39,968 nucleotides of DNA from Escherichia phage PH1061. Below, piece by piece: positions 3,377 through 34,711 of this stretch (position 1 is its first letter; every line of letters begins with the position of its first letter). Made by a program: the position numbers and the translations under genes. The stretch is taken from the sequence record OQ680138.1; one strand, given 5' to 3'. The notes below the pieces were generated by a model, which did not search any database, was not told where the DNA came from, and was given only the letters and a program-made list of their open reading frames with translations.

Positions 3377-3399
3377 CCTAAACTATCACTATAGGATTA
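3377..3399 (+). promoter_or_regulatory. Phage RNAP promoter (phi1.1-like), CTAAACTATCACTATAGGA, +1 near 3394
   Basis: Consensus match. Confidence 0.8.
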
Positions 3400-3404
3400 G
3401 ACTC

Positions 3405-3431
3405 AAGGTCATGACTCAAAGTCGTGGCCTT
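3405..3431 (+). promoter_or_regulatory. RNase III-type processing hairpin (R1.1-like): 11-bp stem AAGGUCAUGAC / GUCGUGGCCUU, 5-nt loop
   Basis: Stem-loop read from sequence; paralogous to hairpins at 11404 and 34622 with compensatory changes; position matches T7 R1.1. Confidence 0.65.
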
Positions 3432-3473
3432 CATGATTAACCCTATAACCTAAACAACTGGAGATTTAACCAC

Positions 3474-3653
3474 ATGTATCAGAACACTATCAACTTAGAG
3501 CGCATCCGTGAACGTCAGCAGACTGAAGATTACATTCCTAAGGGCCGAAAGCTGAACAAGACCAAGCGTGGCGGTGGTGTCAAGGGTGCTTTCCGTAATG
3601 CTGAAGGCAAAGACTCTATGGTCAACCAAGAGAAATACTTCGTAGGAGCATAA
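3474..3653 (+). CDS. 1.1: Gene 1.1-like small basic protein, 59 aa
   Basis: KGRKLNKTKR motif matches T7 gp1.1 as recalled; RBS GGAG upstream; below track cutoff. Confidence 0.7.
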   Translation: MYQNTINLERIRERQQTEDYIPKGRKLNKTKRGGGVKGAFRNAEGKDSMVNQEKYFVGA

Positions 3654-3657
3654 CGCT

Positions 3658-3915
3658 ATGGGCCGACTTTATAGTGGCAACCTAAACGCTTTCAAAGCAG
3701 CGTGGAACAGGCTCTATCAGTTAGACTTCTGCGTGATACAGCAGGATTGGTACGATGCGCATCTTCGGAAAGAGTGCATGAGACTTCAAGTCGAGGACCG
3801 AGCTGGTAACATCTTCGCGCTTAAGACCTTCGCACACCGCGATGAAGACGTACTGTACAACACTGCAACAGGCTTCCTTAACTGTCTCGCTAACCAACTA
3901 GACACATGGAGATAA
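3658..3915 (+). CDS. 1.2: Gene 1.2 protein (inhibitor of host dGTP triphosphohydrolase), 85 aa
   Basis: N-terminus MGRLYSGNLNAFKAA matches T7 gp1.2; same length as T7 (85 aa). Confidence 0.85.
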   Translation: MGRLYSGNLNAFKAAWNRLYQLDFCVIQQDWYDAHLRKECMRLQVEDRAGNIFALKTFAHRDEDVLYNTATGFLNCLANQLDTWR

Positions 3916-3919
3916 CACA

Positions 3920-4942
3920 ATGACAACTATTAAAACTAACCCGCACCGCGCTGTAGATTACTCTGAGTCTGGTATTAAGAAGGCTCTGGAAGCTGCCGGG
4001 TCTCTAGAAGCTGAAGTGAAGTACGATGGTGTACGGTTGAACCTCCCGGTGCTTCGAGAGGGTGAGACCTATTGGTTAAGCCGTGAGTCTAAACCACTGC
4101 CAGCACTTGAGTGGATGAACTCTGAGTTAGGCAATGCGTGGACTCAGGCTGACTGGAGGTGGTTCCTTCGTCAAGCTGGCTATGAAGGTATCGGCCTTAT
4201 GATTGACGGCGAGGTCATGGTCAAAGGTGTTGACTTTAATACGTCCTCAGGTCTCATCCGAACGAAGTGGCTCAAGCCTAACAACGAGGAGTTCGCTGAA
4301 TGCTATCCGGGCCGTGGCAAGAAGGTCCCGTTCTGGGTAGCCAGGTCACGACTTCAGGTTGTGGTATATGGCGTTGTCGATATGACAACCATAGCAGACC
4401 CGAAAGCCGAAGGTCCTATCCATAGCGTCACACGCCTGAAGGCCGAAGCTATCGTCCCTCTCCTCCAGAAATACTTCCCGGAAATCGACTGGGTATTATC
4501 TGAGAGTCATACAGTGTTTAGCTTAGACGAGCTTACTGACTTGTATGAGAAGAAGAGAGAAGAGGGCCATGAGGGTCTGGTGGTTAAAGACCCACTTGGA
4601 CGCTGGAAGCGTGGCAAGAAGTCAGGTATGTTCAAGATGAAACCAAGCGAAGAGGCGGACGGTCACGTTGTGCGCCCTGTGTGGGGTACGGATGGCCTAG
4701 CCAACGAAGGCATGGTCATCGGATTTGACGTGATGCTCGAGAACGGGATGGAGGTCTCCGCAACTAACATTAGTCGCGCCCTTATGTCTGAGTTCACCGA
4801 AAACGTTAAGTCCGACCCTGATTATTATAAAGGCTGGGCCTGCCAGATTACCTACATGGAGGAGACACCAAGTGGCTTACTACGGCATCCCTCGTTCGAC
4901 CGGTGGCGTGGAACTGAGGACGACCCTACGGTCAAGATTTAA
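3920..4942 (+). CDS. 1.3: ATP-dependent DNA ligase, 340 aa
   Basis: Adenylation motif KYDGVR (EVKYDGVRLN); position after gene 1.2 as in T7. Confidence 0.9.
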   Translation: MTTIKTNPHRAVDYSESGIKKALEAAGSLEAEVKYDGVRLNLPVLREGETYWLSRESKPLPALEWMNSELGNAWTQADWRWFLRQAGYEGIGLMIDGEVMVKGVDFNTSSGLIRTKWLKPNNEEFAECYPGRGKKVPFWVARSRLQVVVYGVVDMTTIADPKAEGPIHSVTRLKAEAIVPLLQKYFPEIDWVLSESHTVFSLDELTDLYEKKREEGHEGLVVKDPLGRWKRGKKSGMFKMKPSEEADGHVVRPVWGTDGLANEGMVIGFDVMLENGMEVSATNISRALMSEFTENVKSDPDYYKGWACQITYMEETPSGLLRHPSFDRWRGTEDDPTVKI

Positions 4943-4952
4943 AGCAGACAGG

Positions 4953-5333
4953 ATGGCTCCCTCTGGAGTCTCCAACCTAAACGGTAGACATCTTGGTTAT
5001 AGACGAAAGGATGGGTACTGGATTCTAAGTACGACAAAGGGCCAACTGCTGGCCCACCGAGTAGTCTGGGAACTAACCCACGGCCAGATACCAGAAGGGA
5101 TGGTGATTGATCATATCAACCGGGACCCTTCGGATAACAGGATTGAGAACCTCAGGTGTGTGACTCAGGCGGTGAACCTCACTAACGTTCCAACCCGTAG
5201 TCACTGCCAATCTGGAGAGAAATACGTTCAATACCAGAAATCAACTGGTCGCTGGCAACTGAGGATAAAGCGTAAGTCATACGGTACGTTCGATACCATA
5301 GCCGAGGCGGTAGCCTTAAGAGATTCATTATAA
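4953..5333 (+). CDS. HNH homing endonuclease with C-terminal AP2-type DNA-binding domain
   Basis: Motif DHINRDPSDNRIENLR followed by an AP2-like segment GEKYVQYQKSTGRWQLRIKRKSYGTFDTIAEAVALRD; start set at the first ATG after the ligase stop (track ORF begins inside ligase). Confidence 0.8.
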   Translation: MAPSGVSNLNGRHLGYRRKDGYWILSTTKGQLLAHRVVWELTHGQIPEGMVIDHINRDPSDNRIENLRCVTQAVNLTNVPTRSHCQSGEKYVQYQKSTGRWQLRIKRKSYGTFDTIAEAVALRDSL

Positions 5334-5339
5334 CGTCAA

Positions 5340-5378
5340 CCCAGTGGTCTCATGACTGCTGGGTTTCTCTGCTTTGTG
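5340..5378 (+). terminator. Rho-independent terminator (early terminator TE analog): 10-bp stem CCCAGUGGUC / GACUGCUGGG, loop UCAU, then U-rich tail
   Basis: Read from sequence; located after ligase/HNH as T7 TE follows gene 1.3. Confidence 0.65.
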
Positions 5379-5411
5379 CTATCAATCTATCATCTGGGCC
5401 ACCAGGCTGAC

Positions 5412-5434
5412 CCTAAGCTATCACTATAGGACAA
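5412..5434 (+). promoter_or_regulatory. Phage RNAP promoter variant, TAAGCTATCACTATAGGA, +1 near 5429
   Basis: One mismatch to consensus at about -13. Confidence 0.7.
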
Positions 5435-5462
5435 CCATAACTTCGACCTAAGGAGGCCGACC

Positions 5463-5723
5463 ATGTTTAAGAACTTAATGTTCAATCGTTATACCAGTAC
5501 ATTCCACCTGTCTCACAACCCGTTCGCTTGCATTAAGCGCAACGAGAAGCTGGGCTACTTCGGGAAGGCCGTTAAGCTGTCACCTACAGTCTTCGCTCTG
5601 ATTACTCCGGGTAAAGCTGAAGAGGCTAGCCAGAAGCGTGAGACCAACGTACCTGTGGTCTACACCAAGTGGCCTCGTGTTCGCCTGTTCATTGAGTTCG
5701 TGAAGGAGGTGGTCAATGCTTAA
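5463..5723 (+). CDS. Hypothetical protein, 86 aa (gene 1.6 position)
   Basis: ORF with RBS AAGGAGG; positional analogy only. Confidence 0.6.
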   Translation: MFKNLMFNRYTSTFHLSHNPFACIKRNEKLGYFGKAVKLSPTVFALITPGKAEEASQKRETNVPVVYTKWPRVRLFIEFVKEVVNA

Positions 5724-6159
5724 GGTTGGGGATACAGTTGAATATGTTGGACCTGTTAAAGCCTACATGGGACTCTCCTGTGGCAAGGTGATTATGGTTA
5801 GAATGGGGCACATAGTTGTTGTTAAGTGGCCCTGTTCACCTGAACCAGTCATTCACTCCTCTAGTGCCTTAAGTATTACCAATCAGGAGCAGGCTGAGAC
5901 GCCAACCATAGGTCAGGAAGACAGCGTCCGTAAGCCGTCACACTATCAGGTCTTTGACGGTGTGGAATCCATTGGGATTATCGCTCGGTCCATGACTGTC
6001 AGTGAGTTCCGTGGTTTCTGCATGGGTAACGTCCTGAAGTATCGACTCCGAGCTGGTAAGAAGTCAGAGCTGGCGACTATGGAGAAGGACCTGAACAAAG
6101 CAGCCTTCTATCAGGAGCTGTTCGACCTGCATAAAGGTAAGTGCTATGACTCCAAGTAG
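5716..6159 (+). CDS. 1.7: Gene 1.7-like protein (T7 gp1.7 nucleotide kinase family), 147 aa, with a divergent N-terminal part
   Basis: C-terminal KPSHYQVFDGVESIGIIARSMTVSEFRGFCMGNVLKYRLRAGKKSELATMEKDLNKAAFYQELF matches the T7 gp1.7 C-terminus as recalled. Confidence 0.75.
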   Translation: MLKVGDTVEYVGPVKAYMGLSCGKVIMVRMGHIVVVKWPCSPEPVIHSSSALSITNQEQAETPTIGQEDSVRKPSHYQVFDGVESIGIIARSMTVSEFRGFCMGNVLKYRLRAGKKSELATMEKDLNKAAFYQELFDLHKGKCYDSK

Positions 6160-6237
6160 CTGGTGCTTTAGACAGTGGGTCTCAACCGGGAATGTGGACT
6201 ACCTGTCCATGTACCATATGTGGAAGGAGAAAGGACT

Positions 6238-6396
6238 ATGAGCCTTGAAGAGAAGAAATACATCGTGGAGCTTGAGGGTCGCGTTCAGTCCTTCGAGGTT
6301 CCGGTGTACGCAAAGTCTCTTGAAGAGGCTACCCTGAAGTCCCAAGAGTATGAGGACGCTGGGTTTGTGGTCGGACGAATCCGTCCTGAGACCTAA
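6238..6396 (+). CDS. 2: Gp2-like inhibitor of host RNA polymerase, 52 aa
   Basis: [14 protein letters not shown] matches T7 gp2 SFEVPIYAETLDEA; strong RBS GGAAGGAGAAAGGACT; the track ORF's GTG start at 6175 is less likely. Confidence 0.8.
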
Positions 6397-6414
6397 ACTA
6401 TCACTGTAGGACAG
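6392..6414 (+). promoter_or_regulatory. Phage RNAP promoter variant (phi2.5-like), CTAAACTATCACTGTAGGA, +1 near 6409
   Basis: One mismatch (-3 A to G); overlaps the gp2 stop codon. Confidence 0.65.
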
Positions 6415-6453
6415 ACGTCCAGTTCGTAACTTTAAATTAGGAGATTTACACCA

Positions 6454-7152
6454 ATGGCTAAAGAGCAACTGAAGACTTTCACCACCCCGGTAGCTGGTAC
6501 CGTTGAGCCTTACGCATGGCTGAACAAAGCAGATACCAAGTTTAACGAGCGTGGTGAGCATAAGGTTAACCTGACTTTCAGTCTGGGTGACCCGAAGGTC
6601 CGTAAGATGATTGATGTCTTACAGAAGATTCACGACGATGCGTATGCGAAAGCACTCGCAGACCACGAGAAGAACCCACCTAAGGTTCAGCGTGGCAAGA
6701 AGCCTATTGAACCACGAGAAGGCGACATGCCGTGGATTGAGAATGGTGACGGTACTGTTACCCTGAAGTTTAAATGCTTCGCGTCTTACCTGAAGGATGG
6801 TAAGTCAGAGCCTATCGTATTACGGTTCTACGACACCGATGCTAAGTTAATCAGTGACGTCCCGAATATTGGCGCTGGCTCAAAGCTGAAGGTCAAGTTT
6901 AAAGTCGTGCCGTTCAAGTGGAACGCTGCGACTGGTGCAAGCGTTAAGCTCCAGCTTGAGTCCTGCCTTCTGGTAGAACTGAAGGAATGGAAAGGTGATG
7001 GTGCTGGTGGAGATGGTGGCTGGGGCGATGATGAAGACCTCGGTACTGGCTACAAAGCGTCAACCGATGGTGACTTCGGGTCTGGTGACTTCGGTGACGA
7101 TGGTTCCGAAGGTGGTGATGGCTCTAACTCTGGTGGCGATTACGACTTCTAA
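6454..7152 (+). CDS. 2.5: Single-stranded DNA-binding protein, 232 aa, acidic C-terminus ending DF
   Basis: Same length as T7 gp2.5; conserved blocks PKVQRGKKPIEPREGDMPW and GASVKLQLES; acidic tail with terminal Phe. Confidence 0.93.
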   Translation: MAKEQLKTFTTPVAGTVEPYAWLNKADTKFNERGEHKVNLTFSLGDPKVRKMIDVLQKIHDDAYAKALADHEKNPPKVQRGKKPIEPREGDMPWIENGDGTVTLKFKCFASYLKDGKSEPIVLRFYDTDAKLISDVPNIGAGSKLKVKFKVVPFKWNAATGASVKLQLESCLLVELKEWKGDGAGGDGGWGDDEDLGTGYKASTDGDFGSGDFGDDGSEGGDGSNSGGDYDF

Positions 7153-7604
7153 TGGCCCAATGGTCTGCAAAACGGGGGCACTCTGTGGGTGCCTACCGCT
7201 CTGGACTTGAAGCCAAGAACCAGCAGTGGCTGGAACAGAACGGCGTCAAAGCGGAGTACGAAAGCCATTATATCAACTATGTGATTCCGGCTTCCGACCA
7301 CAAGTACACACCAGATTTTATCCTTCCTAACGGTATCATCGTAGAGACCAAAGGTATCTTCGATAGTGATGACCGTAAGAAGCACCTTCTGATACGAGAA
7401 CAGCACCCAGAGTTAGACATCCGGTTCGTGTTCTCAAGTTCCCGCTCAAAGTTATACAAAGGGTCTCCGACCACGTATGGCGCATGGTGCGAAAAGAACG
7501 GCTATAAGTATGCCGATAAGTTCATCCCGGTTGAGTGGCTGCGAGAGGCGACTGTACGTCTGCCTTCAGGCCTACTCATTCCCAAGAAGAAAGGAGTTAA
7601 GTAA
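7152..7604 (+). CDS. 3: Endonuclease I (Holliday junction resolvase), 150 aa
   Basis: Colinear with T7 gp3 (149 aa) from memory; YTPDFILPNGIIVETKG block. Confidence 0.88.
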   Translation: MAQWSAKRGHSVGAYRSGLEAKNQQWLEQNGVKAEYESHYINYVIPASDHKYTPDFILPNGIIVETKGIFDSDDRKKHLLIREQHPELDIRFVFSSSRSKLYKGSPTTYGAWCEKNGYKYADKFIPVEWLREATVRLPSGLLIPKKKGVK

Positions 7605-8059
7605 TGACTACCTGTAAAGACCTTGAAGTTGGAACACGTTACAGATTCTCAAAGAACACCCTGCTGAATAATCCCCAATTCACTGATGCTGTTTTCGAAA
7701 AGCGAGAAGACCATAGCGTAATTGTGGAGAAGGGGTGGCATCCTGAGGATTACATCGGTGAGACTACCAGCTGGAATGGTCACGAGACCTACAGTGTAGA
7801 AGTTGTTGAACAGCCTCAGGTCCTTCCAGCTTCAAGTGTCCCTCCTGTCACCGTTAAACGTGAAGTCCTGACCATCAACAAGATTGGTGTAGGTCAGACG
7901 TTCATCGTCCACGGTAAGCCTGACGAAGTGTACGTGAAGATTAGCAACTCTCACGTCTTCAACCACAAGCGACTCCAGATGCACACGACTGACGCACAGC
8001 GCTTCCAGTCACATCTGAATCTGGTGGTAGTAGAACTAGTTGTTTATAATGGAAAGTGA
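7604..8059 (+). CDS. Hypothetical protein, 151 aa, between endonuclease I and lysozyme (no T7 counterpart)
   Basis: ORF with ATGA-type coupling to gene 3 and RBS AAAGGAG; no recognisable motif. Confidence 0.6.
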   Translation: MTTCKDLEVGTRYRFSKNTLLNNPQFTDAVFEKREDHSVIVEKGWHPEDYIGETTSWNGHETYSVEVVEQPQVLPASSVPPVTVKREVLTINKIGVGQTFIVHGKPDEVYVKISNSHVFNHKRLQMHTTDAQRFQSHLNLVVVELVVYNGK

Positions 8060-8420
8060 CTGCATCGAGTGGGCTAAGAGTCGCAATAAGGATGGCTATG
8101 GTAGACGTAAATTCCGTGGTCAATCTATGGGTGCTCATAGAGCAGCTTGGATAGAGACCAATGGTGCTATACCGGGAGGTCTTGTCGTAAGACACAAGTG
8201 TGATAACCGTGCATGCGTAAACATTGAGCACCTTGAGTTGGGGACTCAGGCAGAAAACATGATGGACTGCTCAGTACGCAGGACATTTAATTCAAAACTA
8301 ACTGAAGATGACGTTGAGGATATTCGCACCTCAAGCGAGACCCTTAAGTTTATGGCTGAAAAATACTCAGTAAGTGAGACAACCATAAGTCGAATCAGGA
8401 ACCACAAGAGGTGGAAATAA
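8049..8420 (+). CDS. HNH homing endonuclease (family B), about 123 aa
   Basis: Motif RHKCDNRACVNIEHLELGTQAEN; lower GC than surroundings; paralog of 26877..27326. Confidence 0.8.
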   Translation: MESDCIEWAKSRNKDGYGRRKFRGQSMGAHRAAWIETNGAIPGGLVVRHKCDNRACVNIEHLELGTQAENMMDCSVRRTFNSKLTEDDVEDIRTSSETLKFMAEKYSVSETTISRIRNHKRWK

Positions 8421-8422
8421 TA

Positions 8423-9209: not shown

Positions 9210-9417
9210 ACTTATCGAATTTCTTGGTCGCCTGGTGGTGCGTGGTTATCGTCGTGCTGCGGTACTGGAACGAAAGGTAGAAAAGAAGACTGCTGACGGT
9301 GCGGCTGAGGCTGCTGCTTTGGCTGACAAGCTGACCATCGCGTCACTGGAAGCTGGCATGAAGGCACGTCAAGCTGACACCAAAGCTGACCAGTTGGCTC
9401 AGTTCTTCAAAGACTAA
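9202..9417 (+). CDS. Hypothetical protein, 71 aa
   Basis: ORF with RBS; Ala/Lys-rich predicted helical protein. Confidence 0.55.
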   Translation: MIKLIEFLGRLVVRGYRRAAVLERKVEKKTADGAAEAAALADKLTIASLEAGMKARQADTKADQLAQFFKD

Positions 9418-9435: not shown

Positions 9436-9482
9436 GGACCACGAGTCCTGTCCCTCTGTTCGCATTTGTGATTAAGGAGTGA

Positions 9483-11228: not shown

Positions 11229-11393
11229 GTGTTAAATAAACTTAAAGCTCGCTACCATCGGTTCATGTACAAATGGTGGAGCGATGAAGCAACCTTCCTG
11301 TCCAACATTCTAGGAGACCAGAGGTTCGACTCTAAGGCGTGGAAGAGAGCTAACCGGAAGTTTATGTATCACTTCTTGCGTACAGACTTCTAG
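11229..11393 (+). CDS. Possible small protein, 54 aa, GTG start (gene 4.x position)
   Basis: RBS GGAGGA 8 nt upstream of GTG; below track cutoff. Confidence 0.3.
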   Translation: MLNKLKARYHRFMYKWWSDEATFLSNILGDQRFDSKAWKRANRKFMYHFLRTDF

Positions 11394-11403
11394 GTCTAGA
11401 CTC

Positions 11404-11428
11404 AAGGTCATTCACATCGAGTGGCCTT
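11404..11428 (+). promoter_or_regulatory. RNase III-type processing hairpin (R4.7-like): 10-bp stem AAGGUCAUUC / GAGUGGCCUU
   Basis: Paralog of 3405 and 34622 hairpins with conserved flanks TAGACTCAAGG and ATGATTA. Confidence 0.65.
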
Positions 11429-11456
11429 TATGATTAGACTAAACGGAGGATTAACC

Positions 11457-13643
11457 ATGTTTGACCTTAAGAGTATCTGGGGTTCTGACATCGAGACCAA
11501 CGGTCTCCTTGATACAGTCTCCCAGTTCCACTGTGGGGTCCTGATTAACGCCGAGTCGAATGAGACCCTTAAGTATGGGGTAGCTCCGATGGTCGGTATC
11601 GTCGGTGGCTTCAAAGAGTATGTTCATAAAGTGGAAGAGATTGCCGCATCACCTGATGGTATGCTGGTATTCCACAACGGTATCAACTACGACGTCCCGG
11701 CTATTGATAAGCTGAAGCGTCTGTACTTTGGGAAACGCTTTAACTTCCCGAAACACAAGATGATTGATACCTTGGTGCTGGGTCGCTTGATGTATCCCAA
11801 CATTAAGTTCTCAGACATGGGAGCGGTGAAATCGGGCCGTCTGCCACCTAATATGATGGGACGTCAGTCTCTTGAGGCTTGGGGTTATCGTCTCGGTGAG
11901 ATGAAAGGTGAGTACAAACACGATTACGTTGCCAAGTGCAAGGCTGAAGGTATCGAATATAAGGCTGGGGACGAGTGGTTGTTCCCGTCTCAGGAGATGC
12001 TGGACTATAACGTTCAAGACGTTGTGGTCACACTGGCGTTGTTCAAGAAGTTCCTGACTGACAAGTATTACTTCCAGTCTGAACAGTTCGCTTTCGACCA
12101 GATTTATGCGTTGCGTCTGGAACATGATGCTGCGTGGACCTGTGCGAAGATGGAACGTAACGGCTATCCGATGAACACCGAGATGGTCGAAGGCTTATAT
12201 CGTGAACTCACCGTCAAACGTGCAGAGTTGTTGGACAAGCTGCGTTCGACTTTCGGTAGCTGGTATGCACCAAAGGGAGGCAAGGAGTTCTTCAGGCATC
12301 CACGGACAGGTAAGGACCTTCCGAAGTATCCGCGAGTCGTGTATCCTAAGGTAGGGTCAGTATTCAAGAAGCCGAAGAACAAAGCTCAACGCTTAGGTCT
12401 GGAACCTTGCGAGTTCGACTCACGAGACACGATGGAGGGAGCACCGTTCACACCTATCACTTACGTTGAGTTTAATCCGGGAAGCGGAGACCACTTAGCG
12501 AAAGTCCTGATGGAGCGTGGCTGGGAGCCTGTGGACTTCACTGACACCGGGAAACCTGTAGTCGATGACGAGACGTTAGAACACGTTAAGTTGCCAGACG
12601 CAGAGGCTCAGGCTTGTGTAGAGCTGGTCCGTGAGTATCTGGTAGTCCAGAAGCGCATCGGTCAGGCTGCTGAAGGTAAGAACGCATGGTTGAAACTTGT
12701 AGGTCCAGACGGACGTATGCACGGTTCAATCAACCCATGCGGGGCAGTAACCGGACGTGCGACTCATAGTGCACCAAACATGGCTCAGGTCCCGGCTAAC
12801 GGTGCTCCGTATGGTGAGATTTGCCGTAGTGCTTTCGGTGCAGCGTGGAACAAGCTGACATTCCCGGACGGACGGCAGTTACCGGACCCTTGGATTCAAG
12901 TTGGTGTGGACGCTTCAGGTCTTGAGCTTCGTTGTCTGGGGAACCGAGCAGCTCCGTTTGATGGTGGTGCCTATGCGAAGACTGTGGTCGAAGGTGACAT
13001 CCACTGGGCCAACGCAGTAAACGCTGGTTTAGCACCTAACGTCCCACGCGATAAGTCGAACCACGACCATGATGCTTTCCGTAACAACGCTAAGACGTTC
13101 ATCTATGCGTTCCTGTATGGTGCAGGGGCCGCTAAGATTGGACTTATAGTAGGCGGTGGGAAGAAGGAAGGTTCAGCTCTCATGAAGAAATTCATTGAGG
13201 GTACACCAGCCATCAAGGACCTCAGGGAAGCTGTGAGTAATACGTTAATCTCAGACTCTAAGTGGGTGGACGGAGAGAACATCGTCAAGTGGAGACGCCG
13301 TTGGTTGCGCGGACTTGACGGTCGCCGTATCCACATCCGGTCGCCACACTCAGCACTGAACGCCTTACTTCAAGGTGATGGTGCGGTAGTCTGTAAGCAC
13401 TGGATTGTCGAGACCGAGCGTATGCTCGAAGAGGCCGGGTATGTCCACGGCTGGGAAGGAGACTTCGCGTACATGGCTTGGGTTCACGATGAGCTACAGA
13501 TTGCTTGTCGTACTCAGGAGATTGCCGAAGAAGTCGTCAAGATTGCTCAACTTGCTATGCGTAAGGTGGGTGAGTTCTATAACTTTAAATGCGTCCTTGA
13601 TACCGAAGGTAAGATTGGACCAACGTGGAAGGAGTGTCACTAA
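11457..13643 (+). CDS. 5: DNA polymerase (family A) with 3'-5' exonuclease and thioredoxin-binding insert, 728 aa
   Basis: DIETNGL exo motif; KKPKNKAQRLGLEPCEFDSRD matches the T7 thioredoxin-binding segment; C-terminal ...KIGPTWKECH; start at ATG 11457 with RBS (track ORF starts upstream at GTG). Confidence 0.96.
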   Translation: MFDLKSIWGSDIETNGLLDTVSQFHCGVLINAESNETLKYGVAPMVGIVGGFKEYVHKVEEIAASPDGMLVFHNGINYDVPAIDKLKRLYFGKRFNFPKHKMIDTLVLGRLMYPNIKFSDMGAVKSGRLPPNMMGRQSLEAWGYRLGEMKGEYKHDYVAKCKAEGIEYKAGDEWLFPSQEMLDYNVQDVVVTLALFKKFLTDKYYFQSEQFAFDQIYALRLEHDAAWTCAKMERNGYPMNTEMVEGLYRELTVKRAELLDKLRSTFGSWYAPKGGKEFFRHPRTGKDLPKYPRVVYPKVGSVFKKPKNKAQRLGLEPCEFDSRDTMEGAPFTPITYVEFNPGSGDHLAKVLMERGWEPVDFTDTGKPVVDDETLEHVKLPDAEAQACVELVREYLVVQKRIGQAAEGKNAWLKLVGPDGRMHGSINPCGAVTGRATHSAPNMAQVPANGAPYGEICRSAFGAAWNKLTFPDGRQLPDPWIQVGVDASGLELRCLGNRAAPFDGGAYAKTVVEGDIHWANAVNAGLAPNVPRDKSNHDHDAFRNNAKTFIYAFLYGAGAAKIGLIVGGGKKEGSALMKKFIEGTPAIKDLREAVSNTLISDSKWVDGENIVKWRRRWLRGLDGRRIHIRSPHSALNALLQGDGAVVCKHWIVETERMLEEAGYVHGWEGDFAYMAWVHDELQIACRTQEIAEEVVKIAQLAMRKVGEFYNFKCVLDTEGKIGPTWKECH

Positions 13644-13933
13644 TGGCTATGACCAAACGTATGCGAGTTTCGTTCTCGCTGGGTACTGTATTATCAACTG
13701 AAGACATCGAGGGACTCAAGGAGACTCTCTGCAAGCTGAGTCGTAAGGTTCTGAACGGAGAGAAGCCCACTGGCTTCGAGCGTAAGATGGTAGAGGTAGG
13801 TGCTACAGAGGGTCTGGAAGCTGTGGTAGAGCTTGTCTTAAAGAAAGGCATTGTTGACGGGCTGAAAGAAGATATTAAGTACTACTCCGATAAGACCAGC
13901 TTCGGAGACTTCCGAGTGGAGTTCAAGCAATGA
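13643..13933 (+). CDS. 5.5: Gene 5.5-like protein (T7 gp5.5 binds host H-NS)
   Basis: N-terminus MAMTKRMRVSF matches T7 gp5.5 MAMTKRFKVSF; TAATG overlap with the polymerase stop. Confidence 0.75.
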   Translation: MAMTKRMRVSFSLGTVLSTEDIEGLKETLCKLSRKVLNGEKPTGFERKMVEVGATEGLEAVVELVLKKGIVDGLKEDIKYYSDKTSFGDFRVEFKQ

Positions 13934-20234: not shown

Positions 20235-20240
20235 TTGAAA

Positions 20241-20277
20241 CCCCTTGGGTGCCTTCGGGTGCTTGAGGGGTTTTTTT
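20241..20277 (+). terminator. Tphi-like late terminator: CCCCUUGGGUGCCUUCGGGUGCUUGAGGGG followed by UUUUUUU
   Basis: Close resemblance to T7 Tphi (AACCCCTTGGGGCCTCTAAACGGGTCTTGAGGGGTTTTTTG) and same position after gene 10. Confidence 0.9.
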
Positions 20278-23459: not shown

Positions 23460-23483
23460 CTTATTGAAGGGCCTATAGATTTA

Positions 23484-23506
23484 CCTTAACTATCACTATA
23501 GGGACT
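23484..23506 (+). promoter_or_regulatory. Phage RNAP promoter (phi13-like), CCTTAACTATCACTATAGGGA
   Basis: Consensus match. Confidence 0.85.
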
Positions 23507-23535
23507 ATAGGCCCTTAAGGTTATAAGGAGACTTT

Positions 23536-26876: not shown

Positions 26877-27326
26877 ATGAAGAACGGGACAGCCAGTGAG
26901 AGACTGGCAGAACTGTCAGTAACCGAAGAGTCTGGCTGTATCCGCTTCACCGGAAGCATTGAGAAGTCCGGTTATGGAAGGATAATGATTAATAGGGTAA
27001 AATATGGAGCGCATAGACTTGCTTACGAGCTTGCTAATGGTCCTATACCCGATGGGTACGTTGTTCGCCATAAATGCGACAACCCGTCCTGTATAAACCC
27101 AAGCCACCTTGAAGTTGGCACACAAGCTGACAACATAAAGGATAAGGTGACTAGAGGTCGCCAAGCATCAGGATGCTCCATAGGAGTATCTAAGCTCACT
27201 GAGGAAATTGTGAGAGACATAAGGTCCAGCGACCTAAAGGTTTCACTCTTGGCGGAACGATATGGAGTGAGTACGGTTTCTATTAGAAATATATTGAGGA
27301 GAAAGACATGGCAACACGTGGTGTAA
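26877..27326 (+). CDS. HNH homing endonuclease (family B), 149 aa, inserted between genes 15 and 16
   Basis: Motif RHKCDNPSCINPSHLEVGTQADN; paralog of 8049..8420; lower GC. Confidence 0.8.
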   Translation: MKNGTASERLAELSVTEESGCIRFTGSIEKSGYGRIMINRVKYGAHRLAYELANGPIPDGYVVRHKCDNPSCINPSHLEVGTQADNIKDKVTRGRQASGCSIGVSKLTEEIVRDIRSSDLKVSLLAERYGVSTVSIRNILRRKTWQHVV

Positions 27327-30300
27327 GGAACGCAAATCCGGGCAATATCCGTAAGTCAAAAGACCAGTGGGAAGGTGCTATAGGCGATGATGGTGCATTC
27401 GTTATCTTCGACAGTCCTGAATCTGGGGTCCGAGCATTAGCGAAAAACCTTCAAAGCTACGGTCGCCAAGGTTATGACTCCATCGAGAAGATTATCAACC
27501 GTTGGGCACCTCCGAACGAGAACGACACTCAGTCCTACATCGACTCGGTTGTATCTGCGACTGGTATTCCTGCAACTCAAAGTCTCGACCTATCGGACCC
27601 TGACACCCTGTCTTCTCTGGCTCAAGCTATCAGCTTCCATGAGACAGGCTCCCGGTACGACCCTGAAGTCTATCAGAAGGGAGTCGCACGAGCACTCAAT
27701 GGCATTAGCCCAAAGACTCCACCAGTAAGCGCTAACGTATTTGACGCACTCACGGAAGGACTCAAGGCTAAACCTAAAGTAGCTCTGGGCGAGAACCTTC
27801 CGACCGCTGCTGGTCTAAACATTGAGGGTCAAACACCTGAAGCTCCCAACGAATCGTTCGGGGAGATGTTCTATAAAGCTACTGGGGAGACCATGCAGGA
27901 ACGAGAGGACCGCTCTACGTGGTTCGGTTTTGGTGCTGCTACAGAAGCTGAAGTGAAGAACTCTATGGTCGGCGTGGCTATCCGCGCTGGTCAGACCGAG
28001 GACTCACTTGATGTCATTGGCGATGTGTTTAACCCTACCAGATGGAACAACCATAAGTGGACTCGCGAGGAGCTGGACCAGATTCGTAACGCGGGGGTTC
28101 TGCCTCAGTATTACGGAGTCATTACTGGTGGCTCTCCTCAGAACCTGACCGAGCTTATTAACTTGGCGCTTGAGAACCAGAAGTTGGACCAAGAGAAGGC
28201 CAAGGCTGGGACTGGCGCTCAGTTAGCTGCTGGTGTTATTGGTGCTGGTGTAGACCCTCTGACATACGTTCCTATTGCTGGACAGGTTGGTAAGGGCGCT
28301 AAGCTGGTTAATAAGATGTTCACCGTGGCTGCTCAATCTGGGGCACTGGTTGGTGTGTCTGAGATGGCCCGTACATCAGTGGCTGGTGGTGATGCTCATG
28401 TGGCTGAGGCTATCCTTGGTGGTGCTCTCTTCGGTGGTGGTATGACTGCTATCGCTGATGGCTTAGGCAGAGCCTTAGGTCGTAACACTAACGAGTTCGC
28501 TGGCCCAGCTACACGTCTGGAAGCCCGTGAGACTGCACGTAATGTTGATGGTCAGGACCTGTCTCGTCTACCTATTCAGGAAGGTGAGCAGACCTTTAGT
28601 CATCAAGGTGTTAAGTTCGCAGACGTTCCGAACGAGCCGGGTAGTGTACGACTGGAAGATGGTTCAATCCTGATTGGTGAGAACCCTCTGAACCCTAAGA
28701 CACGTCAAGTCTTTGACGAAGTGATTGAGCCAGAACGTGCCGCTGCTGGTGTGAACCTTGGTGGACTTACCGAGATTGGCCTGAAGCTGCTTCGGTCTGA
28801 GAACCCTGAGATTCGTGGAGTAGCTGCTGACTTAGTGCGTTCACCGACTGGTATGCAGTCTGGGGCCTCAGGTAAAATCGGGACCACTGCATCTGACGTA
28901 TTCGAGAGACTTCGTGCTGTAGACCATCGGTTCTACAACGACATCGACGATGCTGTTACTGAGGCACTCAAGGACCCTTACTTCCAGACAGCATTCTGGC
29001 GAGATAACTCAGCTCTGCGTGAGGATGTTTATAAGCGTTCGGCTTTGGCTATTGAGGATGGTAGCGGGAACCTGAAGGCTGAACTTACTCCGGGGGAACT
29101 GAAAGTCTATGACCTGCTGAAGAACCAGTTTGATGCAAAGCGCGAGATGATGGAGAACCCAGCGATGTTCGGTCGTACAGACGCTCAGTCTATCTTTCCT
29201 GGTAGTAGATTCAAGGGGACCTACGTTCCTGTAGTCTATAGTTCTCAGATGAAGCAGCTTTATATCAAGGAGCTTGGAAGCCCAGAGTCATTACAGGAGG
29301 CAATCAAGAAGTCATGGCTGACAAGCTATGTGTCAAGACCTGAAGTCAAGGCGCGAGTGGACGAGATGTTAGCAGAGCAGTTACGGGCGTCTCAGCCAGC
29401 AGCAGGTAAGACTGTGGGTACTACACCTAATCATCGTTCTTCTGTAGAAGCAGCCCGTGACCAGATGAAACTAGATGATGCCGCTACACAGGCAAGTGAT
29501 AAGGTAGCGGAACTAAAAGATGTCCTGACCAACGCTGAGAAGAGAGTTGCAGACCGTGAAAAGAAACTCCAGAACTCCAAGGACAGACTGGCTTCGCATG
29601 AAGCTAAGCTGAAGGAGTTGGAAGAAAAACTAGCTGCTAAACCTAAGAGCAAGACCATTCCTGTTAAGATTGAGAGTCGGAAGCAGATGATTGAGACCCA
29701 GAAGTCTCACGTCCGTATTAACACCGAGCGTCTCGACTACATGAAAGGACAGGCTGATAAGGTTCGAGATAGAATCACCAAAGCAACAACTGAAGCTGAA
29801 GCTGCTGTGGCATCTGCCAAAGGGCAGAAGTCTTCTGTAGATGGTCAGGCCACTACTGCTGGTGAAACTACATCTGGTAACGCATCTCAAGCAGCACCAG
29901 AGGTGACTATGGATATGGTAGAGAAGTATGCTAATGATAAGGCTTATGGTGTCTCCCATACAGAGCAGTTTGAGCGTTCATCCGTAATGGAAGAAAACAT
30001 CAACGGTCTGGTTGGTCTGGAGAACAATAACTTCCTTGAGGCTCGAAACCTGTTCGATAACGACATGGAAATCACCTTGCCAAATGGTAAGCCGTTCAGC
30101 GTAAATAGTCTACGTGAGTGGGATATGGACAAGATTGTCCCGGCCTACAACCGTCGAGTTAATGGTGACATTGCTATCATGGCTGGTACAGGAAAGACCA
30201 CGAAGGACATGAAGTACTTGGTTGAGACCATGATGAACAAGGCTGGTGATGACGGCAAGTTGAAAGGTGAGGTCTCGACCTTACGTGACACCTTGAAGAT

Positions 30301-31696
30301 TCTCACTGGTCGTGCTCGACGTGATGGTGCTGACGATGCTGCCTTCGCTACCGTGATGCGTACAATGACAGACCTATCGTTCTTCTCTAAGAATGCCTAC
30401 ATGGGTGTTCAGAACTTAACGGAGATTGGTGGTATGCTATCTCGTGGTAACGTTCGTGCATTGCTACATGGAGTCCCTATATTCCGTGACCTAGCCTTCC
30501 GTAACAAGAAGGTAGGGGCCTCAGAGATTAAGGACCTGCACAACGTTATCTTCGGTAAGGAACTGGATGACTCAATCCGTCCGTCTAAACAGGATGTCAT
30601 TGACCGTCTTCGAGCGTACAGTGCCTTGAGTAAACCATCGGCTACAGCTCTTGGGACTGCCAAGTATTACACTGGTGAACTTGCAGTACGCTCTCCGTTC
30701 ACTAAAGTCCTCAACGGTACGACCAACTACCTGTTAGACGCTGGACGTCAAGGCTTCCTGTCTGACATCGTGGAGCATAGTCTGACTGGTAGTAAGCGTA
30801 AGTTCGATGACCGCTGGCTGAAGACCTCTGGTATCTCTGACGAGCAGTGGAAGGGTATTAAGTCCCTAATCCGTGAGTCAGTGACTCGTGGTCCAGACGG
30901 GAAGTATACCATCAAGGATAAGAAGGCGTTCAGTCAGGACCCAAGGGCTATGGACCTGTGGCGTATGGGTGACACCATCGCTGACGAAACGTTACTCCGG
31001 CCCCACAAGCTGTCAAACATGGACGCCAAGGCTTATGGTCCTCTCGCTAAGACTGTCCTTCAGTTTAAGAACTTCGTCATCAAGTCCATCAATGGGCGTA
31101 CCATGCGAACCTTTTATAACGCCACGAAGAACAACCGAGCGATGGATGCTGCTCTGTCCACTGTGATGTCTATGGGTCTTGCTGGTATATACTACATGGC
31201 GCAGGCACACATCAAGGCTTACGCTATGCAGGATGGTCGTGACCGTGACTACCTCAAGCAAGCTCTGGACCCGACGATGATCGGATATGCGGCTCTGTCC
31301 CGTAGTTCACATCTCGGTGGACCACTTGGGGTAGCTAACATTCTGGGTGGTATCGCTGGGTACGAGGACACTAAGATGCTCCGTTCGTCTATCCTACCTC
31401 GGTCGCCTACAGAGAAGCCTGAACGTGCCATCGCGTATGGTGCAGCTACAAGTGACCCTGTGATGAATATTGTTGGCAACTTCTTGGAGCAGGTTCCAGC
31501 TTTCGGATATGCTGCTAACGTCGGCGCTTCGGCTTACAACTTGGCTGGTTACCTCAAGGCTGATACTCGTGTCAACGAGCGTGACTACATGACCGGGATG
31601 TATAATACGTTCCGTGAACTGGTTCCGAACGACCCCATTACCCAGAAGCTGTTGCTTGGAACGTTTGAGGAGCAAGGTATCCACATCAAGGACTAA
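27308..31696 (+). CDS. 16: Internal virion protein D (gp16-like), 1462 aa, with divergent N-terminal domain and an internal coiled-coil insertion
   Basis: Long colinear blocks with T7 gp16 from STWFGFGAATEAE... to the C-terminus (for example RSPTGMQSGASGKIG, NGDIAIMAGTGKTTK, LLDAGRQG). Confidence 0.93.
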   Translation: MATRGVRNANPGNIRKSKDQWEGAIGDDGAFVIFDSPESGVRALAKNLQSYGRQGYDSIEKIINRWAPPNENDTQSYIDSVVSATGIPATQSLDLSDPDTLSSLAQAISFHETGSRYDPEVYQKGVARALNGISPKTPPVSANVFDALTEGLKAKPKVALGENLPTAAGLNIEGQTPEAPNESFGEMFYKATGETMQEREDRSTWFGFGAATEAEVKNSMVGVAIRAGQTEDSLDVIGDVFNPTRWNNHKWTREELDQIRNAGVLPQYYGVITGGSPQNLTELINLALENQKLDQEKAKAGTGAQLAAGVIGAGVDPLTYVPIAGQVGKGAKLVNKMFTVAAQSGALVGVSEMARTSVAGGDAHVAEAILGGALFGGGMTAIADGLGRALGRNTNEFAGPATRLEARETARNVDGQDLSRLPIQEGEQTFSHQGVKFADVPNEPGSVRLEDGSILIGENPLNPKTRQVFDEVIEPERAAAGVNLGGLTEIGLKLLRSENPEIRGVAADLVRSPTGMQSGASGKIGTTASDVFERLRAVDHRFYNDIDDAVTEALKDPYFQTAFWRDNSALREDVYKRSALAIEDGSGNLKAELTPGELKVYDLLKNQFDAKREMMENPAMFGRTDAQSIFPGSRFKGTYVPVVYSSQMKQLYIKELGSPESLQEAIKKSWLTSYVSRPEVKARVDEMLAEQLRASQPAAGKTVGTTPNHRSSVEAARDQMKLDDAATQASDKVAELKDVLTNAEKRVADREKKLQNSKDRLASHEAKLKELEEKLAAKPKSKTIPVKIESRKQMIETQKSHVRINTERLDYMKGQADKVRDRITKATTEAEAAVASAKGQKSSVDGQATTAGETTSGNASQAAPEVTMDMVEKYANDKAYGVSHTEQFERSSVMEENINGLVGLENNNFLEARNLFDNDMEITLPNGKPFSVNSLREWDMDKIVPAYNRRVNGDIAIMAGTGKTTKDMKYLVETMMNKAGDDGKLKGEVSTLRDTLKILTGRARRDGADDAAFATVMRTMTDLSFFSKNAYMGVQNLTEIGGMLSRGNVRALLHGVPIFRDLAFRNKKVGASEIKDLHNVIFGKELDDSIRPSKQDVIDRLRAYSALSKPSATALGTAKYYTGELAVRSPFTKVLNGTTNYLLDAGRQGFLSDIVEHSLTGSKRKFDDRWLKTSGISDEQWKGIKSLIRESVTRGPDGKYTIKDKKAFSQDPRAMDLWRMGDTIADETLLRPHKLSNMDAKAYGPLAKTVLQFKNFVIKSINGRTMRTFYNATKNNRAMDAALSTVMSMGLAGIYYMAQAHIKAYAMQDGRDRDYLKQALDPTMIGYAALSRSSHLGGPLGVANILGGIAGYEDTKMLRSSILPRSPTEKPERAIAYGAATSDPVMNIVGNFLEQVPAFGYAANVGASAYNLAGYLKADTRVNERDYMTGMYNTFRELVPNDPITQKLLLGTFEEQGIHIKD

Positions 31697-31714
31697 ACTA
31701 TCACTATAGGAAAC
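31692..31714 (+). promoter_or_regulatory. Phage RNAP promoter (phi17-like), CTAAACTATCACTATAGGAA
   Basis: Consensus match; overlaps the gp16 stop. Confidence 0.85.
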
Positions 31715-31760
31715 GGGAGGCGCTACCATAGGTCTCCCTTTAAATCACAAAGGAGGCATA

Positions 31761-33881
31761 ATGTCCACTATTACACAATTCCCTTCAGGCAACACTCAGT
31801 ACAGGATTGAGTTCGACTACCTAGCCAGAACGTTTGTTGTTGTTACGCTGGTGAATAGCTCTAACCCTACCCTGAACCGTGTACTGGAAGTTGGTCGAGA
31901 TTACCGATTCCTTAATCCAACGATGATTGAGATGTTGGTTGACCAATCAGGTTTCGACATCGTTCGTATTCACCGTCAGACTGGAACTGACTTAGTAGTA
32001 GACTTCAGGAATGGCTCAGTGTTGACAGCTAGTGACCTGACCAATGCAGAGCTTCAGGCTATCCATATTGCAGAAGAAGGTCGAGACCAAACTGTTGACT
32101 TAGCGAAGGAATATGCCGATGCTGCTGGTAGCTCTGCTGGCAACGCTAAGGATAGCGAGGACGAAGCACGACGAATCGCTGCGACTATCAAGGCAGCTAG
32201 TCTAGTTGGTTATATTACCCGTCGCTCCTTCGAGAAAGGCTTCAACGTTACAACATGGAACGAGGCCCTGCTATGGGAAGAGGATGGCGATTATTACCGC
32301 TGGGATGGTACGCTTCCAAAGAACGTTCCTGCTGGCTCAACTCCTGAAACGTCTGGTGGCATTGGGTTAGGAGCGTGGGTTAGTGTCGGCGATGCTACAT
32401 TGCGCAATCAAATATCTGACCCTGACGGTGCCACTAAGTACCCAGCGTTACAAATTGCGCGTTGGCGTGATGAAGGAGATGTGCGCGGTTGGGGTACTGG
32501 CGAAGAAGGTTTTAACGCCGCGATGTCTGAGTTGTCAGCTAATGGGGGTGGCACACTATTCGTTAATGAGGATATACTCTTTACATCCCTTCCTATTATG
32601 CACAAAGAGCATGTAACTGTGCGATGGAACGCTGTAGCTAAAGTTAAGTCAGGCTTGACTGCTGAATATGCTTATATAATGGATGGTGGAGCAGATACTC
32701 CTGCATACAACAGTTCCCATCACTTTACTAAAGCTAACAAAACAAATTGCTATAACCTCTTCTTAGTAGCAGAGGATTATACAACAGGTATTTCTGCTAA
32801 AGGTGTTTGTGTGCGCCATTGCTACGAATGGACTTACGAAGGGGGGGCAATTATCGGGTTTAATAATGGAGGTTTCTACGAGACTAACAACTACGAAGGA
32901 AAAGCCAGCAAATTCACGATGGTTGTAGCTAATACAAGACTTGATAATTCTGTAGGATTTGAAAGTAATTCAACTGACAGTTGGTTTAGTGAACTTTCTC
33001 CAGTTGGTTATTCAATTGGTCTAAAGTTTAATAAGAGCGCAAATGTGGTTGATAAGGCACACCCCTGGGGTAATACAGTTAACAATCTTGTAGGCGCAAT
33101 GGGGCAGATGAATGTTGGTATTGTAATTACAGAGAACGCAGGTTTTTCTACATATTCAAATATTATTCTTGATACTCCGGTAAGGAAGAACACCAATAAG
33201 ACACCATCTAGAAGCAATGGTGGGGTTGGTGTAATTTGTGATGCATGGGACTGCGTTCTTGATGGTATTCTTGTATTACCGTCCAGACATGACACAGTAG
33301 CAAAAAGTACCTTACCAATGATCACCACTATGCAAAGATCAACAATAAAAGATTTTCAGGTTTCGGGGGAGCAGTATGTAACAGACATATGGATTTCATT
33401 TGAAAACAATTCAGGGATAGCCAGGAATCACGTTTCAGGTTATGGGTATGCTGAAAAAATGCGTACAGGAATGACCTTTGGACCCAATTCAGGGGCTGTT
33501 CTTGCAAGTGCTGATGGTGTAACGATGTCGAGCCAAACTCTGACCTCTGGAATATGGTATAACACATTAAGTTTTTCCATAGCTACAACAATAACAGCTA
33601 TACCGTCAGCAACAGGTGATGTAATTGTTAATATAACTCCTGCTTATGGCGTTAAATCTGGATTCGGTGGTACAGTTAAGGGTGGCATGTACGCATTTTA
33701 CTACGCCACAGCAAACTCAGCCAAACAATTATATGATGTTTCCTTAGAGGTAGTGTCAGATAATACCGCTAAGTTCTTATTGACATTCATAGATGGAACT
33801 ACTCGGTACGCACACTGGACAGATGTATCTAACGGTTCAGCAAGAGCCATAAGTATATCAGGAGTCATTAATATAAAATAA
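31761..33881 (+). CDS. 17: Tail fiber/tailspike, 706 aa: T7 gp17-like N-terminal adaptor domain fused to a non-T7, AT-rich C-terminal receptor-binding module
   Basis: N-terminal FDYLARTFVVVTLVN...DYRF...LQAIHIAEEGRD matches the T7 gp17 N-terminus; downstream part has no T7 similarity and a clear GC drop from about 32560. Confidence 0.9.
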   Translation: MSTITQFPSGNTQYRIEFDYLARTFVVVTLVNSSNPTLNRVLEVGRDYRFLNPTMIEMLVDQSGFDIVRIHRQTGTDLVVDFRNGSVLTASDLTNAELQAIHIAEEGRDQTVDLAKEYADAAGSSAGNAKDSEDEARRIAATIKAASLVGYITRRSFEKGFNVTTWNEALLWEEDGDYYRWDGTLPKNVPAGSTPETSGGIGLGAWVSVGDATLRNQISDPDGATKYPALQIARWRDEGDVRGWGTGEEGFNAAMSELSANGGGTLFVNEDILFTSLPIMHKEHVTVRWNAVAKVKSGLTAEYAYIMDGGADTPAYNSSHHFTKANKTNCYNLFLVAEDYTTGISAKGVCVRHCYEWTYEGGAIIGFNNGGFYETNNYEGKASKFTMVVANTRLDNSVGFESNSTDSWFSELSPVGYSIGLKFNKSANVVDKAHPWGNTVNNLVGAMGQMNVGIVITENAGFSTYSNIILDTPVRKNTNKTPSRSNGGVGVICDAWDCVLDGILVLPSRHDTVAKSTLPMITTMQRSTIKDFQVSGEQYVTDIWISFENNSGIARNHVSGYGYAEKMRTGMTFGPNSGAVLASADGVTMSSQTLTSGIWYNTLSFSIATTITAIPSATGDVIVNITPAYGVKSGFGGTVKGGMYAFYYATANSAKQLYDVSLEVVSDNTAKFLLTFIDGTTRYAHWTDVSNGSARAISISGVINIK

Positions 33882-33915
33882 CCCAGCCTTGAGGTTGTTG
33901 GCCTGATTTCTGGCG

Positions 33916-34143
33916 TTGGTGCTAAAACCCATCAAATATCAAGGCTCTGATGGTTCCCATCTCTTTATGCTGACTACTGATGACGGAACTGTTAAAGATG
34001 TTAACGTGGTTACGACCTTACTGCTCCCTCTGGTACATTGGATTCCTGAACCGGGTAGAGGACCGAAGGTTGTGGAGGTAGAGGCTAACTACACGTTGAC
34101 TAACGTATGGCAACAACTTTGGGTCACGGACGACCCGATTTAA
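33916..34143 (+). CDS. Possible hypothetical protein, 75 aa, between tail fiber and holin
   Basis: Open frame with GTG start and no convincing RBS; fills a 275-bp gap that is short in T7. Confidence 0.3.
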   Translation: MVLKPIKYQGSDGSHLFMLTTDDGTVKDVNVVTTLLLPLVHWIPEPGRGPKVVEVEANYTLTNVWQQLWVTDDPI

Positions 34144-34155
34144 ACTGGAGGTTTT

Positions 34156-34350
34156 ATGATTGAGTTAGACTTCAAGAATGAGGCCCTTAAAGCCTCTCCT
34201 ATCGTCGGGACCGCTGCGGCTGATGGTGCCAGTCGGTTCTTCTTCGGACTTACACTGAACGAATGGTTCTACGTTGCAGCTATCGCGTACACCGTTGTCC
34301 AGATTGGTGTGCTAGTCTACAAAACGATTAAAGGAGGTGGTAAAACATGA
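34156..34350 (+). CDS. 17.5: Holin (T7 gp17.5-like), 64 aa
   Basis: SPIVGTAAADGASRFFFGLTLNEWFYVAAIAYTVVQIG matches the T7 holin; one TM segment. Confidence 0.92.
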   Translation: MIELDFKNEALKASPIVGTAAADGASRFFFGLTLNEWFYVAAIAYTVVQIGVLVYKTIKGGGKT

Positions 34351-34610
34351 CTCAGATGGACTTAGAGAAGTTCCTCTTAATGCTAGATACTGAACGTGCT
34401 CGACTCATGCTGCAAGACCTGCGGGATGACTCTAAGCGTTCACCTCAGCTTTACAACGCCATTGAGAAGCTACTGGCTCGTCACAACTTCGTGTTAAGTA
34501 AGGTGTCTGTGGACGAGAAGACGCTGGCTGATATGGAGGCCCTGAACGCAGAGTACGATAAGGTGCTTTCAGCGACTGAGGATAATGACACCGGGTATGG
34601 CGTTCAATAA
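34347..34610 (+). CDS. 18: Terminase small subunit (gp18-like), 87 aa
   Basis: RSPQLYNAIEKLLARHNF matches T7 gp18 RSPQLYNAINKLLDRHKF. Confidence 0.9.
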   Translation: MTQMDLEKFLLMLDTERARLMLQDLRDDSKRSPQLYNAIEKLLARHNFVLSKVSVDEKTLADMEALNAEYDKVLSATEDNDTGYGVQ

Positions 34611-34621
34611 GTGTTAGACTC

Positions 34622-34648
34622 AAGGTCATTACTATATGTAGTGGCCTT
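34622..34648 (+). promoter_or_regulatory. RNase III-type processing hairpin (R18.5-like): 11-bp stem AAGGUCAUUAC / GUAGUGGCCUU
   Basis: Third paralog of the conserved hairpin family; position matches T7 R18.5. Confidence 0.65.
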
Positions 34649-34711
34649 TATGGTTAACACTAACTAGTGGAGTAGACTCTACGTGAAATCTGATAAACCG
34701 GGAGGGCAACT

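Follow-up and report, generated by a model that had tools for sequence, protein, structure and literature searches.

Three related hairpins and their position in the PH1061 genome

We analysed a stretch of 39,968 nucleotides from Escherichia phage PH1061 (OQ680138.1), referred to here in its entirety as the window, with attention to three related hairpins that lie between its genes and resemble the ribonuclease III (RNase III) processing signals R1.1, R4.7 and R18.5 of phage T7. The window is a Kayfunavirus genome, that of a K1F-like relative of T7. The records that cover the window best are Escherichia phages of the genus Kayfunavirus (K1F-like, Studiervirinae), with 93-94% identity and 91-94% of the first 25 kb of the window covered. 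By tblastn with T7 proteins, site 1 comes after gene 1, and also after a phage promoter, and precedes homologues of genes 1.1, 1.2 and 1.3; site 2 follows genes 4 and 4.2 and stands directly before gene 5 (DNA polymerase, ATG at 11457); and site 3 starts at the stop codon of gene 18 (TAA, 34608-34610), ahead of the ATG of gene 18.5 (34712). This synteny, before genes 1.1, 5 and 18.5, bears out the correspondence with T7 R1.1, R4.7 and R18.5 that had been proposed in an initial annotation of the sequence.

A search for TAGACTCAAGGTCA-N(10-25)-TGGCCTT returned exactly three matches in the window, at 3398-3431, 11397-11428 and 34615-34648, all on the + strand, while none of 100 dinucleotide-preserving shuffled controls was matched. 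The core AAGGTCA...TGGCCTT alone finds the same three sites against an expectation of 0.01, so that the outer stem AAGGUCA/UGGCCUU, which had been called invariant, is indeed common to all copies. On the 3' side the copies continue as CATGATTA, TATGATTA and TATGGTTA, and the flanks are thus shared as described. The initial annotation was right as to where the elements lie and that they are repeats, except that it began copies 2 and 3 one base before the shared motif. With the lower stem and internal loop included, the full elements span approximately 3390-3447, 11393-11440 and 34610-34661. At the gathering score, the Rfam release used gave no match anywhere in the window, and hence none for these hairpins; nor were target-site duplications or terminal repeats found around the three copies.

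Structures were predicted with RNAfold in 70-nt windows, stability being expressed as a z score against 200 shuffles. The three sites are listed here with their minimum free energy (MFE), their z score and their score in a covariance model described below.

3390-3447, + strand: site 1, R1.1-like; MFE -22.8 kcal/mol, z -5.5; covariance model 68.6 bits, E 4e-14; aligns with T7 R1.1
3390-3395 and 3397-3400, paired with 3437-3440 and 3442-3447: site 1 lower stem
3401-3404 (ACUC) and 3432-3436 (CAUGA): site 1 internal loop
3405-3431: site 1 upper stem-loop
3379-3397, + strand: phage promoter abutting site 1, TAAACTATCACTATAGGAT, with +1 at about G3394
11393-11440, + strand: site 2, R4.7-like; MFE -22.0 kcal/mol, z -3.7; covariance model 68.7 bits
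11393-11399, paired with 11434-11440: site 2 lower stem
11400-11403 (ACUC) and 11429-11433 (UAUGA): site 2 internal loop
11404-11428: site 2 upper stem-loop
34610-34661, + strand: site 3, R18.5-like; MFE -23.4 kcal/mol, z -4.2; covariance model 67.5 bits; supported by ortholog alignment
34611-34617, paired with 34654-34660: site 3 lower stem
34618-34621 (ACUC) and 34649-34653 (UAUGG): site 3 internal loop
34622-34648: site 3 upper stem-loop

Transcripts initiated at the promoter at 3379-3397 contain only the inner part of the site 1 lower stem.

Secondary structure and homology with T7

All three sites share one topology, consisting of a lower stem of 7-10 bp, an asymmetric internal loop with ACUC on its 5' side and YAUGR on its 3' side, and an upper stem of 10-12 bp. 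The lower stem opens with UAG (of TAGACTC) paired to UUA (of ATGATTA) and otherwise varies from copy to copy with pairing kept (GGAUUAG/UUAACCC, GGUCUAG/UUAGACU and GUGUUAG/UUAACAC). What had been annotated as flanks, correct in sequence, are therefore structural parts, the lower stem and the internal loop, of an element of which only the upper stem had been seen. The upper stem itself folds as it had been described, with stems of 10-12 bp and loops of 3-5 nt: 12 bp and a 3-nt loop at site 1, or equivalently 11 bp and a 5-nt loop; 10 bp and a 5-nt loop at site 2; and 11 bp and a 5-nt loop at site 3. The differences between copies in the inner stem are compensatory, as had been claimed, pair 9 being G-C, U-A and U-A and pair 10 A-U, C-G and A-U in sites 1, 2 and 3 respectively.

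None of the 200 shuffles was as stable as the native sequence at any site. The antisense strands of sites 1, 2 and 3 reach -20.4, -10.8 and -14.3 kcal/mol, which is 2-12 kcal/mol worse than sense, because the sense structures contain G-U pairs. A genome-wide sliding scan of MFE in 70-nt windows was uninformative, since coding regions reach similar energies; folding of intergenic gaps was informative.

The same core occurs in the T7 genome at 1441-1465, 5861-5884, 6421-6445 and 13867-13889, with a close variant at about 36826-36856. These positions we take to be R0.5, R1.1, R1.3, R4.7 and R18.5, with cleavage coordinates of 1468, 5887, 6448, 13892 and 36856, attributed to Dunn & Studier (1983). 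All five coordinates fall 3 nt after CCUU or UCUU, that is, at CCUUYAU^G, and this constant offset from the motif supports the values. The window sites align column for column with the five T7 sites around an invariant core, CU-AAGG-C...GUGG-CUU, and the same bipartite fold is predicted for the three window sites and for T7 R1.1, R4.7 and R18.5, with z between -3.3 and -5.5. The 10-bp upper stem of site 2 is identical to that of T7 R1.1 (AAGGUCAUUC/GAGUGGCCUU).

Covariation and distribution among related phages

A covariance model (R1), comprising 20 base pairs, was built from the three window sites and the five T7 sites. The window sites score 67.5-68.8 bits against it, compared with 55-74 bits for the T7 training sites, and of the T7 sites outside the training set the model also recovers R6.5 (47 bits), R0.3 (26 bits) and R1, the last weakly. 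K1F has five matches. A further search of 80 viral contigs gave 273 matches, every one of them on the sense strand; these 80 relatives have RNA polymerases 58-97% identical to that of the window. In a set of 23 genomes the genes that follow the matches are homologues of 0.3, 1, 1.1, 1.3, 4.7, 5, 6.5 and 18.5. The ortholog of site 2 precedes gene 4.7 in relatives that retain that gene, and in each of 23 close relatives gene 18 is followed immediately by site 3.

Across 86 distinct sequences from the 23 genomes, pairing holds in 88% of cells, compared with 27-48% when the partners are slid, and changes on both sides are seen at 17 of the 20 modelled pairs; the observed values were reached in 0 of 500 shuffles. 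The alignment used here had been fitted to the model, and alignments made with MAFFT only, as a check, agree with the result. At locus L105 they show C-G replaced by U-A in the outer stem, which is invariant elsewhere, and in the L099 group a change from U-A to C-G at pair 9. The most conserved columns are those of the internal loop and proximal stem, where the T7 scissile bond lies: in the loop that carries the bond, C is present in 87 of 89 sequences, U in 83 and G in 80. ACUC, AAGGUC...GGCCUU and YAUGA are near-invariant among paralogs, and also between genera that share only 58% identity in their RNA polymerases.

Further members of the family in the window

The initial annotation counted three paralogs. 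Their paralogy stands; the count is too low, having missed an R0.5-like site (site 4) and a candidate R0.3-like site (site 5), both in the early region.

39204-39259 (model match 39197-39268), + strand: site 4, diverged R0.5-like copy; 33.8 bits, E ~1e-5, with filters off
Site 4 stems: lower stem UGAGUGAUAA paired with UUAUCACUUA; upper stem GAGGUCAUC... paired with ...GGUGGCCUC
38321-38379, + strand: site 5, candidate hairpin of the R0.3 type; the gene 0.3 homologue starts 35 nt farther on (ATG 38414)
23466-23520: perfect 12-bp inverted repeat AAGGGCCTATAG ... CTATAGGCCCTT, enclosing the phage promoter upstream of gene 13

Site 4 folds at -26.6 kcal/mol (z -4.6) and is orthologous to K1F 1759-1829. 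Site 5 (-26.1 kcal/mol, z -4.1) has the same layout of lower stem, internal loop and upper stem in a different sequence. The covariance model has no match at its position in the window, the sequence having diverged past the reach of the model; it does match K1F 1023-1093 and T7 845-911 (R0.3), both of which have the same fold as site 5. On the strength of its position, a by-eye alignment with K1F and its fold, we regard site 5 as a candidate R0.3-like site.

The hairpin at 23466-23520 (-22.9 kcal/mol, z -2.8; no match to the covariance model) may be the counterpart of T7 R13, which sits at the phi13 promoter, and other intergenic hairpins beside phage promoters may likewise correspond to R13, R3.8 or R6.5 of T7. 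A half-motif, ACTCAAGGTC, straight after the promoter upstream of gene 1 (76-112) has a stem of only 5 bp. We did not count it as a processing site, given its weak fold (z -1.9) and the lack of a match to the covariance model; it may be a degenerate R1-like site.

Proposed function and predicted processing

We consider it highly probable that the three hairpins are host RNase III processing signals in polycistronic sense-strand transcripts, orthologous to T7 R1.1, R4.7 and R18.5 and paralogous to one another. Sequence homology, fold, covariation, strand specificity and synteny together argue for the RNase III-type identity first suggested in the initial annotation, while T7 biochemistry is the basis for expecting cleavage, for placing it exactly and for attributing to it an effect on mRNA stability. 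RNase III processes early, middle and late precursors of T7, though under standard conditions the phage can do without the enzyme (PMC4858673). In such substrates, internal loops confine cleavage to one strand, leaving a 3' hairpin that is protective against 3'-to-5' exonucleases (PMC1540722).

By analogy, each RNA would present about two helical turns of duplex, the lower and upper stems being split by the ACUC/YAUGR loop, and E. coli RNase III would bind this quasi-continuous helix. Only one phosphodiester would be cut, in the 3' strand of the loop (CCUUYAU^G), because the internal loop removes the duplex partner strand. The upstream mRNA would then end in the intact upper hairpin and so be shielded from 3'-to-5' exonucleases, and the downstream mRNA would begin 22-60 nt before the next start codon, that of gene 1.1, gene 5 or gene 18.5. 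Single cuts are predicted at 3434^3435 (site 1), 11431^11432 (site 2), 34651^34652 (site 3) and 39247^39248 (site 4).

The loop motif itself holds an AUG (3433-3435, 11430-11432 and 34650-34652); the copy in site 2 shares the reading frame of gene 5. Since cutting is predicted between its U and G, processing would destroy the AUG.

Published work on the T7 element requires approximately 11 bp, at least, between cut and loop, gives U-A/U-G as the optimal distal box, and reports weaker binding of a minimal substrate after substitutions in the distal box (PMC1540722). In the window the distance from cut to loop is 10-12 bp plus 3 loop nucleotides, which by this count is long enough, to be set beside a rule that derives from a minimal substrate without a lower stem (PMC1540722). 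The distal box is U-G/U-A in sites 2 and 3, as in R1.1, and U-G/G-C in site 1, which might be a weaker substrate, given that G-C replaces the U-A of the R1.1 distal box.

Several points weigh against identifying the hairpins as RNase III signals. One is this departure of site 1 from the optimal U-G/U-A distal box. The T7 sites and their cleavage coordinates do not appear in the feature tables returned for NC_001604 and V01146. RNase III sites are likewise absent from the annotation of the K1F and EcoDS1 GenBank records, and literature searches on RNase III in K1F or Kayfunavirus, or on the sites R1.1, R4.7 and R18.5, gave only unrelated reviews or nothing in the library searched. Finally, tblastn with T7 proteins found no homologue of gene 0.7 (protein kinase) in the window, with its early region at 37377-39908. 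In T7 this kinase phosphorylates and stimulates RNase III, so that in PH1061 the enzyme would act unstimulated.

Alternative explanations

The hairpins might be bound by RNase III, or by another factor that binds double-stranded RNA, without being cut, or might act as static stabilisers of 3' or 5' ends. Some R1.1 variants are known to be bound by RNase III without cleavage (PMC1540722), T7 under standard conditions is able to grow in the absence of the enzyme (PMC4858673), and site 1 with its non-canonical distal box would fit such a role. We nevertheless regard this as very improbable, since the upper stem of site 2 is the same as that of T7 R1.1, which is efficiently cleaved, and since no part of the family is more conserved than the loop with the scissile bond, a constraint for which a plain stabiliser would have no need.

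At site 2, the gene 5 Shine-Dalgarno sequence GGAGG (11445-11449) can pair with CUUCU (11387-11391) to form an optional outer helix, which is present in the window, K1F and L003, takes another form in L011, L012, L017 and L019, and is absent in L015, L079 and L035; close relatives thus keep the pairing and more distant ones do not. Cleavage at site 2 would part CUUCU from the GGAGG strand. The sequence demands of E. coli RNase III are usually described as slight, and the additional constraint seen in the loop and proximal stem could point to a second role, either in keeping cutting strictly to a single strand or as the target of an unknown phage factor; or else cleavage at site 2 could unmask the gene 5 Shine-Dalgarno sequence and make translation of DNA polymerase dependent on processing. 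These are speculations, and we think them unlikely to be correct. Sequence conservation above what the host enzyme is supposed to need, together with the potential pairing of the Shine-Dalgarno sequence with the 5' flank, could instead mean that the hairpins are operators at which a phage-encoded RNA-binding protein controls translation of the downstream gene. This we find scarcely credible. The genes downstream of the sites are mutually unrelated (1.1, 5, 18.5 and 0.5-like), the Shine-Dalgarno pairing is missing from the last three loci named above, and T7, though studied for decades, is not known to have an RNA-binding operator protein of this kind.

A function at the level of DNA would also account for dispersed repeats, whether as replication origin, recombination hotspot, cruciform or short mobile repeat, and the primary origin of T7 overlaps the phi1.1A/R1.1/phi1.1B region. 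The probability of such a role is nonetheless close to nil: 273 of 273 model matches are on the sense strand, in the opposite strand folds are weak and A-C mismatches take the place of the conserved G-U pairs, covariation keeps RNA pairing with G-U intermediates included, and the copies lack target-site duplications and terminal repeats.

Transcription terminators or pause signals for host or phage RNA polymerase can be all but dismissed, for although the hairpins are stable, intergenic and contain G+C, no T-run follows any of the three (tails CAUGAUUAAC, UAUGAUUAGA and UAUGGUUAAC), a terminator scan called none of them while calling a TE-like terminator at 5338-5365 and a Tphi-like one at 20237-20274, and site 1 directly follows a promoter, while the genes behind it need to be expressed.

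Other features of the window

The window follows the T7 gene order from gene 1 (RNA polymerase, 149-2830), which comes first, to the early region (gene 0.3, 38414-38923), which comes last, indicating that the contig is circularly permuted. Positions 39858-39968 are identical to positions 1-111. This 111-base repeat has the look of an overlap left by circularising or permuting the assembly, in which case 39,857 bp of the sequence are unique. The contig starts just upstream of gene 1 and not at the physical end of the phage. Further features are as follows.

59, 3379, 5414, 6394, 9415, 15131, 17956, 18944, 23486, 31694 and 37018, + strand: 11 unique copies of the 19-nt phage RNA-polymerase promoter consensus TAAACTATCACTATAGGRA
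5338-5365: strong TE-like terminator (hairpin and T-run), downstream of the ligase gene and an HNH-like open reading frame
20237-20274: strong Tphi-like terminator (hairpin and T-run), after the major capsid gene
4872-5333, 8040-8420 and 26877-27326: three open reading frames resembling the T7 HNH homing-endonuclease genes 3.8, 2.8 and 7.7

The promoter consensus has 12 matches, of which 11 are unique (39916 duplicates 59), all on the + strand and against none expected by chance; the copies are intergenic and their positions match those of T7 phi promoters. One of the three HNH-like open reading frames is located between genes 15 and 16. The product of gene 16 (27308-31696) has 1462 amino acids, compared with 1318 in T7, with a central stretch at about 29377-29900 that is without T7 similarity. 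The gene 17 product (31761-33881, 706 amino acids) is similar to the T7 tail fibre over the first ~110 residues only, and the endosialidase tailspike of K1F is far longer; the small size and limited similarity to T7 suggest a different receptor-binding module.

Comparison with known systems

T7-type RNase III signals entered the textbooks in the 1970s-1980s. The element type has thus been known for decades, the PH1061 copies are not a new kind of element, and no new biology follows from them. Their value is in annotation, for the model and coordinates allow the sites to be marked in related Kayfunavirus genomes, and the sites predict mature mRNA ends for phage engineering, for example of K1F-based therapeutic phages.

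The PH1061 sites agree with those of T7 in their core, (A)CUCAAGGUC...GGCCUU(Y)AUG(R)UU, and in the succession of lower stem, asymmetric 4/5-nt internal loop and upper stem, as well as in strand and in intergenic position at genes 1/1.1, 4/5 and 18/18.5. The abutment of a phage promoter on site 1 also has its parallel in T7, where phi1.1A is followed by R1.1. They differ in that the apical upper-stem and lower-stem sequences are changed in PH1061, with compensation, and in that site 2 abuts gene 5 directly because PH1061 lacks genes 4.3-4.7, homologues of which were not found in the window by tblastn with T7 proteins. T7 has ten sites, whereas five of this architecture were found in PH1061. 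Among closer relatives, K1F (NC_007456) has orthologous sites at 5559-5630, 12846-12915, 36439-36510 and 1759-1829 that score like the window sites. Among the copies in K1F and other Kayfunavirus genomes there are small compensated changes in the apical stem, such as a longer 14-bp variant in L097-L099 and L102.

Cellular substrates of RNase III consist of about two helical turns of double-stranded RNA, recognised through proximal-box and distal-box contacts (PMC1540722). The stems of the 30S rRNA precursor and the lambda N leader are alike in presenting two-turn duplexes of this kind to the same host enzyme that acts on T7-type sites. They have no sequence homology with T7-type sites, however, and are mostly cut on both strands to leave 2-nt 3' overhangs, whereas T7-type sites receive a single cut.

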